A stretch of 62,592 nt of DNA, the filler included, from Dugesia japonica (taxonomy: Eukaryota): NCBI GenBank assembly GCA_001938525.1. It is 6 parts of 6 records of this genome, joined end to end, with 100 filler letters (N's around TTAATTAATTAA, not from the genome) between each part and the next. Parts side by side here need not be neighbours in the genome. Positions count along the whole stretch, not along the records: positions 1 to 9,439 come from MQRL01601026.1; positions 9,540 to 21,271 come from MQRL01606331.1; 4 more parts are not named here. One strand, written 5' to 3'. Positions 6,654 to 18,951 of the stretch are shown in pieces. How positions within the stretch are numbered: position 1 is the stretch's first letter; each line of letters starts with the position of its first letter. The notes under the pieces were generated by a model. It did not search any database, was not told the origin of the DNA, and saw only the letters and a list, made by a program, of their open reading frames with translations. Position numbers and translations under genes: made by a program.

Positions 6654-6727
6654 ATCTTTGTTGTTATCTAATATCTAAAGGATCATCACGGTTAAGTAGT
6701 AGTAAAAGGTAATAATTTCTTGTTTAG

Positions 6728-7085
6728 TGCCCTGGATCCGACTTCAAACTAGCCTAAAACGGTGCCGTCGCCTGATACAGAAATTATTAATAGAACGCCA
6801 TGTCAAGAGACAAAATGAGAGGGCTCTGTTAACATACCTTTCCCAACGCAACAAACTCATCAAAAAACTTGACTTGATTGTGAAAAAAATGAAGTAAACA
6901 AACAAACAAAGCAGCTCTTACAACACAAGGTGGAATTTTTGAAGCGTTATATCGCTGACTTATCGAGACAACTTGGTAACTCAGCATGGGTCTATTGGAA
7001 TGACAATGATGATGAGGCTGACTTTAATTTTTTAGATATCGATCCGGCCCAGTGGTTAGACCCGGGCGCTTTAGATCTTTTGTAA
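6728..7085 (+). pseudogene. LTR-terminal protein exon, homolog of 18560-18951, one frameshift in an A-run near 6885
   Basis: SLKRCRRLIQKLLIERHVKRQNERALLTYLSQRNKLIKKLD...QTKQLLQHKVEFLKRYI...QWLDPGALDLL*, roughly half identical to ORF 18523-18951. Confidence 0.8.
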
Positions 7086-8129
7086 ATTGTAAACATTAAT
7101 AAACTTAAGTCTCCATACTTGTTAATTTCCAATAAGGGAAAATAAGGAACCCGAAGTAAAGGTGCTGGAGTGAGAACCTCCCGTAAAGGTCGAAGGTCAA
7201 CCGCTCTGTACTGAAAATCTAACTTAGGGCATTAGAGTAAATTCTTGAAAGGGATCTCCTGAGGGATGTTTTTCCCCGGCCAGCATTTTCTTTTCATCAT
7301 CAACTCAGGTGGAACCCCAACATTTTTATTATTTTATAATTTTATTATTTCCGGTTTATTGTATTTGTTATTTTAATTATAGATCGATTAAAGTAATGAA
7401 AATTTTTTCACAATTAGTTATTTGAACAAGTGTTACCTTATTATGGATTTTAGTTTTAAGGAATTCATATTATCAATCTTATTTTGTGGATTTTATGAAT
7501 TTTGGTGAAAATAGAAAGTAGGAATTATTTATTTTATGTGTATAGTTATTTATTTTTATGTATGTGTTTAATAATAAGTACATGTATAATCAGTATAAAT
7601 ACTGATCGTTTTTTAGAATTATTAGACTTAATCTAACTGAGAGAACCTATTTCTTTGATTGGCTTCTCGTTTTTAAATAAAAATCAGCGCTATAAGTAGT
7701 TTAAGGTCATACACTATCAAAATATTATATTTCTTGAAGGTGTGTTATTTTCTTCAATTGACATAATGATATTTACATATTTTACCATATTTATAATTTT
7801 TCGTAAATATATTACATCTATATAGTAAAAGTATATACATACTACACATCTTAAATACTTCCCCAAAATCATTTTGTGTAAATCAATTTATGGTTTCAAT
7901 TATCGAACCATAAAATCTTTATTTGTGTAGAAATATCCAACATTAACAATGATACCTCATAAAATACTATCCAACTTTATCCATTTCTACATTTCATGCT
8001 ACTACCACTTTATAAACCTTTCCAATAATATAAAATATATCAAAAATTTGCAAATATATCATGGTAAAATCTTTATTAATTGTTATTTATTAACTTATTA
8101 TTTATAAATCAAATCAATCAATAATTTTT

Positions 8130-8700
8130 GAAAAAAATATTCGATCAAAATTGTTTTTTCTATTTGGTATTTGATAGCAATTTGATATCTCGACTTAGTC
8201 TTCTTCTGGAATTGACTTTTTCCTATCGTCTAATTGTGGTTAAAATATTTTAAATTCCTTTTTAACTTATCTTAAATAGAGATATAATTTTGGAATTTAT
8301 TTATAAATTGGTATAAATAAGTATAAGGCTTTTACAATTTACCTTTTAAAATACTAAATTTCCATTTTCTAGACTCTTTGGTATTCTTCAAAGCATCATT
8401 CTCCGTTTCTATAGCATATTGAATGGAAATTTTCTTCTAATATCCATTTAATGTTTACTGAAGACATAGATATTATCAAATAATAATTTAGATAATTTGA
8501 TGATTATTATAAGAAACAGCTGTTTAAATAGTTTTTCAGAATATAATATTAGTAGATTGATTCTCCAAATCTAAAATATTAATTGAATTGGAAAACATGA
8601 AATATACGATTTAGTTAAAGACCTGAAGAGCTGGTTGTAAGTTATTTTCACAAGTGGTTCATCTTTATGCTTACTTTATAAATTCTGTACCATTTAAAAT
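8130..8700 (-). mobile_element. Probable Penelope-like element remnant ending in a degenerate hammerhead/pLTR
   Basis: Reverse complement of ~8170-8220 reads GTCAATTCCAGAAGAAGACTAAGTCGAGATATC, matching the repeat at 49540 and 60745. Confidence 0.4.
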
Positions 8701-8867
8701 TAAATGAAAATTCGTTTTTTATTTTTTAAAACTTTGTTTAAATTCATTATTTGTTTGACAGCGAAGGTCAATTAATAATTACTATTTGAAATATATTTCA
8801 CTGTAATTGAACCAGTAATATTCAGATTAACATTTGACATTGTTATTGAATTTGATACATATCCAAA

Positions 8868-15801: not shown

Positions 15802-15840
15802 AAATTCCGGGACGGAATTTAAACAAAACGGAGAGCGATT
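15802..15840 (+). promoter_or_regulatory. Pre-PPT hairpin plus polypurine tract
   Basis: AAATTCCG-GGA-CGGAATTT perfect 8-bp stem, then AAACAAAACGGAGAGCGAT, then the LTR TG. Confidence 0.75.
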
Positions 15841-16332
15841 TGTTGGGGTAAAACTCTCAGTTAGAAAAGAAAATGTGGCCAAAAGGCTCAAGTCAGTAAA
15901 GAAGAACGGCAGGGCCATTGTATTAACCAATAATGAAATTTGAAAGGAAAACCAATTAAGACCATGTTCAGGATAGAGGGAGAATAACCATTAGACAAGA
16001 ATAAAATAAAAGTGAAGATGGCTATAAAGAATCAGGGAATAAAAACCAACACTCATCAATATTGGGAATTAAAAGAAATTATTAAATTAAAAATAAAGTC
16101 AAGAATCATTATAGGAAAATAATTAATTACTAGAAAAATATTATTTAATTTTGAAAATAAAATAAATCAAAATTTGTCAAAAATTCGTTTTACCCGAATA
16201 ACTTTACTCAAAAAAGTCACAGGAGCTTGGTACAAAAAAATTCAGAAAGAATTTGTGACGAAGTATTAAGATTTTGTCAATAAAAAATCTTACCACCATC
16301 CAGAAGATTTCTACAAGGGTTTGAAGAATAGG

Positions 16333-16530
16333 CCAATAAGGGGTCGAAAAATGAAAACAGAACAAAGAAATGGCAATCACATGTCACGCCAAAATTAGAA
16401 GCCAATAGAAGCTCCAAATTCCATGAAAATTCCAAAAATTGGCACCAGAACCAATAAGAAACATGAACGTTAAATTAAAAATAGAAGTCCAATAGCGTTG
16501 ATGCCGAGTTGCATCTAGAAAGCTATATAA
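16333..16530 (+). promoter_or_regulatory. LTR promoter: four CCAAT boxes and TATATAA
   Basis: CCAAT at 16333, 16402, 16451 and 16489. TATATAA at 16524-16530, 683 bp from the LTR start. An equivalent TATA lies 659 bp into copy C (41799-41806, minus). Confidence 0.65.
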
Positions 16531-18559
16531 GCTCTCTAAAATTTAGAAGAAGAAAGTTCATTTTTAAAATATTCGGAAAGTTAGAAAAGCTATTGTGGAA
16601 TTTCTAACTAATTGAAAAAAGAGTAATCACTTATCAACATTTGCGCAATTTACCAATTACGTAAAGGAGAATTATTGGAAAAGAAGCTTGCATAAAATCC
16701 CCTTGCAAATACTTGCGTGTAAGGTCGTTATTTCAACTAAGTTAATTAATCGAAGTATTATTTCGACTTACAGAGGAAGAATATTTCGTCAGTTAGGAAA
16801 GGAATAGAGCCAGTAGGAACCAATTGTATTCGGAATAAAAGAAGAATTATCATCCAGTTGTTTATTCGTCGTTGCCGCAGATCCTCAAGAACCAATTTTA
16901 AAGTAGTTATTTGTCATATTTATTATTTATGAATATGTTAATTGTTGATGTATTAAAATTTAACTAACGTTTAGTTTTTATCTTAAAAAAAATTTATATA
17001 AAACTAATTTATGTTGGTATTTATTATTACGATCATCACTCCAATATTTTTTATATGAATAGGCACTGTCATTGGATTCTCCAATTGGATTAATACTGTT
17101 TTTAGTAACTTACTATTATAATGAAAATCATTTAATTTCTCGTAATCCAGTCGTAGATTATGTCCGTATATATCTCGGAGTAATAGCACACACCACACAC
17201 CTGGATTTAGTGTTGATGCTAAGGATTGTAACTCTCAGTATGATGATTAACAATTATTAAAAGACGTAATCGAGAAATATATGTGTTCGTGTTGTGTATC
17301 TTATTATCAAACACACTGCATCATCGTGAGTCACTCATCGAATCCATAGGCATTTCCAAACTAACTATACTAGTTTAATTTCAGATAAATTATTGTGTAA
17401 CACTTTGAGTAAGATACATTCGTTTGGAAAATAATTAACTTAGTATTCGTGGATTGATGATTATCGTGTATTAATGGAGTTTCCTGAACATGAATTATGT
17501 TAATAATCTCCTAAAAGATGGTTGGAATCCAGTTACATGTTGATTATGTCACCAATCAGTAGCCTGGAAAAATCACTCCTATGAATCAGAAAAGTCTAGT
17601 TAGCCGTAACTCCGTTTTTATATAAAATTGTGTTCATTGAGTTCATCAGCTCTATAATCTAACGGTGTTAATCAGTAAATCAATTATTGTTGAAACCATG
17701 GGAATTTATAAATGGAAATTACTGACAATACTTTCACCGTGGCAATCAACTGTCTAGATCTATATTTGGTATCTAATAGGATGTTTGATAATTGTCTAAT
17801 AAATACAGTTATTAGATTTAAATTGATTCTTTGTATCATCTTATTAATTTATCAATCTCACTGTCGAAGTTACCTCTAGCATGATCAGGACAGTAATTCC
17901 TCAAGCTGGTTTAATTTTTTTTATCCTGCCAATCTATTGTGAAAATATTTTTTTTGACCTAGTGTCCATCCTCTTTGTGCTGTTAACAACGTTTTAAATG
18001 AGATACTTATGAATCATAAACTTCTATTATTTAAATCACCAAGGTTTCAGTTAAATTATTTATGGAGTATCATGGAGAATCCTTTTAAGTTTTTCAGCGG
18101 AGTGTGGGAATCAGGTTGTGAAACAACAATGAATTGTCACCAATCAGTATGTTTCTATTCATGAGATCAGGGTAATGTGAGGTTCGCTGTGATAAACTCC
18201 GAACTATTACCTGTATGTCACCATCCATGGAAGCACATCTTAGATTGATATTGTGAGGGATAGTAACATTGATATCATTACTCATAGGGTGTGTCCAACT
18301 TGAACTTAATTCGCGTAAAACGTTCTTTTCAAATAAAAGATGCCTCTTGAACCTCTTATGGTGGATAAGAGTACCCAAACTTCACAAACTTAATTATTCG
18401 TCTGTTGACCGTCCCTGTAAATAAATGTTTTACATATATATGTGGCTTATATTCATTTATCGATTTCCCTTTTTATTCTGCTAATAATGATTTTGTCTAT
18501 GTATAATTTAAGACCGCAGTAGTTGCTTGAATTGGTATTTAATGTTTTGAATTATTTAG

Positions 18560-18951
18560 TCCAACGAATAATAATCCCCAACAGTCTAAAGCGTTGTCAC
18601 CGAATCATCCGGAGGCTACTTCTAAAACAACACTACAAACGCAAATCAGAGCGTGCCTTGTTAAAACACCTCTCACAGAGAAATACATTGATAAAAAAGC
18701 TAGACACTATAATAAAAAAGCAAAGTGATCCAGCCGAACAAACAAAACAGCTCCTTCAAAACAAAGTTAACTTTTTAAAAAAGTACATCTCCAATCTGTC
18801 CCATCGATTGGGCAACGTGACCTATTTGCAATTGGACGATAATGATGATAGTGCAGAATTCGACTTTACGACTGAAGACAGCACAGTGTTTAATTTGTTA
18901 CCAGAAGAGCCGACCCAGTGGTTTGACCCGGGTGCTCTCGATGAATTGTGA
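18560..18951 (+). CDS. Intact LTR-terminal protein exon (~130 aa: basic helix, coiled coil, acidic tail ending QWFDPGALDEL)
   Basis: Open frame. Acceptor atttAG at 18558-18559, phase 1. Homologs in LTR A (6728-7085) and LTR C (41011-41070). Confidence 0.75.

Follow-up and report, generated by a model that had tools for sequence, protein, structure and literature searches.

Phase-1 exons in putative long terminal repeats of the planarian Dugesia japonica and a start codon that may be made by splicing

Described systems and the Dugesia units

There are known cases in which an open reading frame (ORF) located within a long terminal repeat (LTR) is expressed by splicing, such as sag of mouse mammary tumour virus and nef of human immunodeficiency virus, and in the adenovirus major late unit one leader is joined to many acceptors and several poly(A) sites are used. 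These systems involve one LTR ORF or a DNA virus, and their ORFs have their own ATG. Here we examine a stretch of 62,592 nucleotides from Dugesia japonica (assembly GCA_001938525.1; hereafter the window), an AT-rich piece of animal DNA with assembly gaps, which carries repeat units that are likely LTRs and that hold arrays of short ORFs. Some of these ORFs begin directly after a predicted splice acceptor, and their start codon may be assembled at the junction. All comparisons between copies concern copies inside this window.

A start codon of this kind is described for env of gypsy and the springer subclade of Drosophila Metaviridae, in which the 5' exon supplies AT and the next exon G (PMC2585583; PMC12992720). 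The env start is thus split AT/G (a slash marks the junction throughout), whereas the split predicted here is A/TG. What marks such a start, namely an acceptor followed by part of an ATG in an ORF without an ATG of its own, is found as TG in the exons at 1518, 6259, 6728 and 37239, and not in that at 18560; those at 1518 and 6259 have later ATGs as well. The Dugesia units differ from gypsy in that the repeat itself contains several short genes, with a separate AATAAA for each.

By host and cargo, the obvious family for these units would be Burro/GYPSM1 (PMC6431247, PMC11410931, PMC8532177). BURRO and further gypsy elements increase when smedwi-2 is knocked down by RNAi (PMC8532177). These giant gypsy-like planarian elements encode a polyprotein of ~5000 amino acids that comprises gag, an env-like part, protease, reverse transcriptase, RNase H and integrase, as well as BIR, BCL2 and MATH (PMC6431247). 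By description, they resemble the present case in the AT-rich genome, the kilobase-long repeats, the RING and coiled-coil cargo and the accessory ORFs (PMC6431247). However, the units in the window are without a linked polyprotein, gag, env, BIR or BCL2, and only a RING remnant is present upstream of one of them (unit B). The account of Burro (PMC6431247, section 7) describes neither ORFs nor splicing inside the LTR.

Two other Ty3/gypsy systems offer partial parallels. The accessory protein CERV of Cer1 in Caenorhabditis elegans is made from an mRNA that undergoes splicing, at acceptors that different species have kept (PMC10309623). Unlike the arrays described here, CERV is a single gene that lies outside the LTR and shares upstream coding exons with gag, an arrangement that fits better with the coding upstream exon considered below. 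The Drosophila MDG1 group has the small accessory ORFs sORF1 and sORF2 and an alternative poly(A) site, but these ORFs are reported to be unspliced (10.1101/2025.03.14.642691). A literature search that lay outside subscription papers and Repbase found no description of ORF arrays in flatworm LTRs.

Phase-1 exons and their acceptors

There are five phase-1 exons at the centre of this analysis, beginning at 1518, 6259, 6728, 18560 and 37239 (Table 1). The first-pass annotation of this DNA had described the first four as starting in phase 1 directly after an AT-rich tract that ends in AG, and phase 1 is indeed the long open frame in each; at 6728 it runs for 55 codons, to a frameshift near 6880-6895. 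The fifth, a copy of the 1518 exon designated D, was absent from that set. Two sites are left out of the five, namely 11172 (AG/TG), which opens for 4 codons only, and 707 (AG/AG), which is likely an internal exon of the gene that begins at 526; if both are counted, TG is present at 5 of 7 sites, one of them without an ORF. The 1518 exon had been grouped with the others, and it lies instead in a separate truncated unit (U0).

The positions of the acceptors are conserved in two pairs of homologues. In the terminal exons of units A and B, the AG is located 2 nucleotides plus 7 codons before the residues SLKRC, as had been noticed earlier, even though only one of the seven intervening residues is identical. 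All 5 bases before the junction are the same in A and B, compared with 4 of 15 further upstream and 8 of 21 just downstream. Copy D, examined here as a further test of this conservation, keeps AAG/TG in the same register as U0, at exactly 11 codons ahead of the first residue that is conserved, and none of those 11 codons is identical. The 4-mer of this junction type, AG/TG, occupies 0.0024 of window positions, and AAG acceptors are used in short introns (~55 nucleotides) of the host VCP gene. There is also a step in GC content at four of the AGs that ranks in the top 1.4-4% of the 942 plus-strand AGs in 1-19300, a descriptive figure for AGs chosen by eye. Judged from these sequence features, splicing at the AGs of the phase-1 exons is quite likely.

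The proportion of synonymous differences (pS) between the A and B terminal ORFs is 0.84 and that of nonsynonymous differences (pN) is 0.28 over 109 codons, with pN reaching pS in none of 2000 bootstraps and with no such excess of pS in shifted frames. For the ORFs of U0 and D, the values are 0.73 and 0.39 over 66 codons, with pN reaching pS in 3 of 2000 bootstraps. Codons around breaks are excluded from these alignments. On such comparisons, the array ORFs are real genes under purifying selection.

These genes differ in where an ATG occurs. The claim that neither terminal ORF has an in-frame ATG holds for B (none in 129 codons) but not for A, whose sole ATG is at codon 54, beside the frameshift. 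In the 6259 ORF the first ATG is at codon 23. Codon 13 of the 1518 ORF is an ATG, and if the RNA is unspliced there is a further in-frame ATG upstream; D has neither, with Met13 of U0 replaced by Val, an in-frame stop directly before the acceptor, and its first in-frame ATG at codon 67, after a stop. B lacks an ATG throughout, D lacks one ahead of its first stop, and A and D have in-frame stops at most 7 codons upstream of the acceptor, so that a start must be supplied.

Most of the ORFs are also followed by a candidate poly(A) signal, as the first-pass annotation had observed. AATAAA is present at 990, 1849, 6077, 6105, 6633, 7098 and 18420, and 8 of 10 ORF copies have it within -20 to +29 nucleotides of the stop, well above a chance of ~0.11 per 45 nucleotides; if the 5668 island is taken to end at its first stop (5913), the count is 7 of 10. 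There is no nearby AATAAA for the 5283 ORF or the B terminal ORF. The signals sit at homologous places in A and B and in U0 and D.

Four of the five exons begin with TG, compared with 5.8% of the 394 acceptor-like YAGs across the window. This feature, overlooked in the first-pass annotation, suggests that the start codon is assembled at the junction. In unit A the islands with their own ATG are in phases 0 and 2, and one leader serving them all would therefore have to be non-coding. The TG exons would then need its A, and a leader with A as its last base would likely complete an ATG in four of the five exons.

We propose that transcription would begin at a promoter ~0.65-0.7 kb into the unit, where B and E have a TATA, and that a non-coding leader exon whose last base is A would be joined from a putative donor to one acceptor at a time. 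The A of the leader and the TG of the exon would form ATG, and each AATAAA would be used as a poly(A) signal. The islands with their own ATG (5283, 5668) would perhaps take the same leader. We give this proposal about an even chance, and with similarly balanced confidence place it as the best single mechanism, ahead of a coding upstream exon.

Candidate donors exist for such a leader, as scored with approximate weights. An A precedes both 41676, the top donor of the E leader region, and 5045, a high-scoring donor in unit A; others in unit A are at 5084 and 5193. The TATA match between B and E scores 22.8 bits, which on its own is not above all shuffles. Downstream of the TATA, B (16640-16668, plus strand) and E (41727-41702, minus strand) contain sequences that we take to resemble C/EBP- and PAR-type bZIP sites, and another look-alike is located at 11950-11985 (plus strand), near the 11914 island.

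There are several observations that weigh against a junction-made start. The B exon begins with TC and cannot give ATG, though its ORF is otherwise open, and copy D is without the GC step at its junction. The B leader region has no strong donor behind an A, comparison of the units found no donor conserved across them, and the donor at 5193 is preceded by ATGs (5102, 5158). Phase-1 donor candidates are present in ATG-led ORFs of U0 (659) and A (5909, 5756). There are just five exons, all in one window, and those at 1518 and 6259 share a short motif (hhalign E 0.03); distant paralogy would lower their independence, although the three ORF families (1518, 6259 and terminal) have no clear mutual homology.

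The RNA evidence adds a further negative of little power. No run recorded as RNA was listed as containing the stretch, which is evidence for neither side. Of 24 listed runs, four were mapped, to 1-7400 only; the three raw RNA runs, with about 6, 25 and 25 in 100 of their reads used, gave 14, 122 and 7 matching reads. Of this total of 143, 142 fit only in part, and nearly all came from diverged copies. None is a junction read, and none joins a common donor to the acceptors as had been predicted, at an exon depth of ~2 or less when a joint needs 3 reads. Among the 14 joints listed none is GT..AG and none comes from raw reads, and the reads form no start or end pile-up. Eight X6 reads at 5322 run on into a divergent form of the 5283 ORF, which suggests related copies in poly(A) RNA, or else DNA carry-over. 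All copies in the window are decayed, and any live expression would have its source in relatives at other places in the genome. The earlier model of a shared leader with alternative terminal exons gains from the acceptors conserved in two homologue pairs, the selection and the poly(A) signals, but the units yielded no shared donor, and this low-powered test gave no junction read.

Competing accounts of expression

The most durable competitor keeps the same acceptors and makes the shared upstream exon coding, with a phase-1 donor, such that the junction codon reads Val or Leu and the exons are alternative C-terminal ones. We regard this as unlikely overall, if clearly the best placed of the competing accounts. 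In U0, an ORF from ATG 526 to the donor at 659 ends in phase 1 and is in frame with the 707 and 1518 exons, sharing the frame of the 707 exon across a 48-nucleotide AT-rich stretch; however, joining 659 to 707 creates a stop in this copy. Similarly, the 5668 ORF of A stops right at the donor-like CAG/GTTAG (5909), which is phase 1 by arithmetic, but this stop may be decay, because beyond 5913 the frame stays open up to 6081, with a coding homologue at 11914 (5946-6003 matches 11914-11971). A coding exon would make TG versus TC in A and B synonymous and thus explain B, and Cer1 CERV is built in this manner (PMC10309623). It leaves unexplained why TG, whose background is 0.058 (frequency of G in third positions 0.18-0.37), occurs in four of five exons, and why TG is kept beside diverged codons. 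The junction-made start remains our preferred reading.

A different account treats the AGs as chance occurrences or relics: the ORFs would have been taken up in pieces that then decayed, with loss of their true starts. In its favour, no copy is intact throughout, AG is frequent at 4.4% of positions, and neither a junction nor protein homologues were found. Nevertheless, the AG/T register is kept in two pairs that are close to saturation at synonymous sites, and the homologous placement of AATAAA also speaks against this account, which we consider very unlikely.

Another possibility, raised by the first-pass annotation for the islands with their own ATG, is that a flatworm spliced leader (SL) is added at each AG and resolves a polycistron. 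SL trans-splicing exists in planarians, as titles cited in PMC12582326 indicate, and flatworm SLs end in ATG (PMC12582326). There are acceptors 1-3 nucleotides before the ATGs at 5283 and 5668, and an SL AUG at 5280 would be in frame (62 codons open). Because the SL ends in ATG and phase 0 closes after 0, 8, 4, 9 and 3 codons in the five exons without ATG, SL trans-splicing is rejected for all five of these and is possible only for the own-ATG islands. As a general account it is marginally less probable than chance or relic AGs.

The least probable account is that GTG, made of the acceptor G and TG, serves as a near-cognate start in unspliced RNA: although GTG is in frame in four of five exons, the account fails for B too, leaves the conserved A and T-rich tract unexplained, would require each gene to have its own 5' end, and places a pyrimidine at position -3 in 4 of 4 cases, where the Kozak context prefers a purine.

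Anatomy of the units, their proteins and their surroundings

Units A, B and E start TGTT(A/G)G and end CCCCAACA, with TG...CA ends and inverted termini of 8-9 nucleotides that match at 9 of 9 positions in B and 8 of 9 in A and E. Each proceeds from an A-rich start through GC-richer islands and AT-rich spacers to the terminal ORF and a non-coding end domain. In E, the terminal ORF is decayed, has an acidic tail and is accompanied by AATAAA at 40996. No target duplication was found when the flanks of B were compared; the TTTT pair of A sits in low-complexity DNA, and the flanks of E in (TAA)n are imperfect. D belongs to a unit that ends CCCAACA at 36579. No Rfam match was found in 1-20000, end domain included, no covariation or compensatory pair exists between the two sequences of the end domain (A and B), and no tRNA was detected.

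Table 1. Coordinates of exons, islands, signals and repeat units in the window
Feature	Coordinates	Strand	Remarks
U0 ATG-led coding stretch	526..658	+	ends at donor-like GT (659), phase 1
U0 decayed exon	707..994	+	phase 1, AG/AG, coiled-coil-like tail, AATAAA at 990
U0 exon	1518..1843	+	phase 1, CAG/TG, 107 codons, AATAAA 1849
A island 1	5280..5468	+	AG 3 nt before own ATG (5283), 61 codons
A island 2	5667..6081	+	AG 1 nt before own ATG (5668); stop 5911-5913 overlaps donor-like CAG/GTTAG; AATAAA 6077
A penultimate exon	6259..6653	+	phase 1, TAG/TG, 130 codons, AATAAA 6633
A terminal exon	6728..7085	+	phase 1, TAG/TG, AATAAA 7098
Tail of decayed penultimate ORF of B	18340..18425	+	with conserved AATAAA (18420)
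B terminal exon	18560..18951	+	phase 1, TAG/TC, 129 codons, no ATG
Copy D of the 1518 exon	36929..37239	-	AAG/TG, two internal stops, AATAAA 36912
Best donor candidate after an exon ending in A	5045..5050	+	putative; others 5084, 5193
TATA box in B	16524..16530	+	~680 nt into B; counterpart ~660 nt into E (41806-41800, -)
U0	1-1900	+	truncated island array, adjoins inverted start-type terminus at 2267
Inverted start-type terminus beside U0	1931..2267	-	left limit approximate; deeply covered repeat
Unit A	4638..7322	+	2685 nt; TTTT at each flank; likely solo LTR
Non-coding end domain of A	7136..7322	+	conserved; 162/189 columns identical to B
Decayed A-rich ORF cluster upstream of B	13245..15173	+	coiled coils, C3HC4 RING (PF13920, E 1e-8)
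Unit B	15841..19189	+	3349 nt; purine-rich tract upstream; likely 3' LTR
Unit E	40779..42465	-	1687 nt, flanked by (TAA)n tracts

The units are likely the LTRs of a retroelement, and the earlier placement of the ORF arrays inside an LTR is likely to the same extent, with LTR status judged from structure. A and B are too diverged for one LTR pair, and an assembly gap (15295-15324) separates B from the ORF cluster upstream. A separate question is whether the units are instead non-autonomous, cargo-bearing DNA transposons, which we consider improbable. Conserved ends with a variable middle would suit such elements, with X1 contig depth in the thousands at the termini and in the tens to hundreds over most genes, and there is neither a primer-binding site behind A, B or E nor a paired unit copy or linked gag-pol in the window. 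However, the inverted termini are just 8-9 nucleotides and the ends are TG...CA, and a purine-rich tract and the A-rich ORF cluster precede B, which is without target duplication.

Because terminus depth in X1 is in the thousands (9986 in bin 1977-2223, with a loose end at 1931) and only ~12 in the neighbouring pol remnant, the deep coverage suggests a high-copy repeat, although depth is no copy number. Units also seem to insert into one another, because a reversed start-type terminus (11400-11728, minus strand) abuts an island (11729-12040, plus strand) homologous to A 5946-6003. A 20-nucleotide element at 13119-13138 consists of little beyond two inverted termini, followed by (TAA)n, and is perhaps a collapsed copy. 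An LTR family with an antisense gene at 1-2267 was considered and dropped, since copy D carries the same gene in the usual orientation. There are two decayed, mutually related remnants of ordinary gypsy gag-pol, at 2268-4637 (minus strand), with the inverted terminus at 2267 on one side and unit A on the other, and at 53939-56580 (plus strand); the pol remnants at ~2500-3900 are similar to the ordinary gypsy found at 54-56 kb.

The terminal protein of B has 21 basic and 4 acidic residues among its first 80, with zipper-like heptads, and 13 acidic and 1 basic among its last 49, which form an acidic-aromatic tail. This composition prompts a guess that it is a nucleic-acid-binding activator and that the array proteins are regulators; the other array proteins look like coiled coils. 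The B terminal ORF has no Pfam match up to E 0.05, with bZIP and bHLH profiles not matched, and the island ORFs have only weak coiled-coil matches below cut-off. No relatives of the B terminal, 6259 and 1518 ORFs were found among near lengths in a set of 5.8 billion proteins, and the terminal ORF profile matched none of 1.84 billion representatives. An Atlas search returned only uninformative neighbours, and neither an IMG/VR contig scan nor a pattern search of metagenome contigs gave a match. One metagenome protein match (L001) was rejected as a chance match of 25 residues in an unrelated contig. The tail of the 707 exon resembles the ORF at 14805, at a score reached by none of 300 shuffles. 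In the tail of the decayed penultimate ORF of B (18340-18394, plus strand), which is conserved much more strongly than the remainder of this ORF, DKSTQT corresponds to DKSTPV in A (6564-6600); we take DKSTQT to resemble the binding motif of dynein light chain LC8. A 142-codon ORF with spaced cysteines (13717-14145, plus strand) is located upstream of the RING remnant and has no Pfam or Atlas match.

Several other features occupy the rest of the window. Host exons include one for a lipase (9007-9439, plus strand; PF04083), cut by a gap, those of a long coiled-coil gene (21910-26944, plus strand), one for a DEAD/DEAH-box helicase (47379-47795, minus strand; Pfam E 1e-4), and one at 49986-50327 (minus strand) that we take to resemble an acetylhydrolase. 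A 946-nucleotide tandem duplication of 98% identity (29115-31054) lies across an assembly gap and is possibly an assembly artefact. There is a remnant of a DDE_3 (Tc1/mariner-type) transposase at 35061-35576 (minus strand), with inverted repeats at ~34790-35060 and 36005-36243. The host VCP/p97 gene (52946-59815, plus strand) has a gypsy remnant between its exons, and its best match is 9OX9 (Schistosoma mansoni p97; PMC12415213) at 980.7 bits, with the next entry at 969.9. This match points to a flatworm host, and the base composition suggests a planarian.

LTRs are usually regarded as non-coding control regions. We tentatively suggest, at rather less than even confidence, that the LTR described here is a multi-gene unit in which one leader contributes a single A, in which the choice of acceptor picks the gene and creates its start, in which unspliced RNA cannot make the proteins, and in which the gene set is exchangeable between subfamilies. 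With a start assembled at the junction, translation depends strictly on splicing, which could keep accessory proteins off genomic RNA. The arrangement raises the question of how a full-length RNA of the retroelement gets past the several poly(A) signals of its LTR. If the reading is true, gene finders would miss the members without ATG, and the array proteins without detected relatives in the searched collections would be new accessory families. Every solo LTR with spliced, polyadenylated genes would be a potential expression cassette, and if the gene sets are exchangeable, solo LTRs would be small cassettes of regulatory genes that spread.

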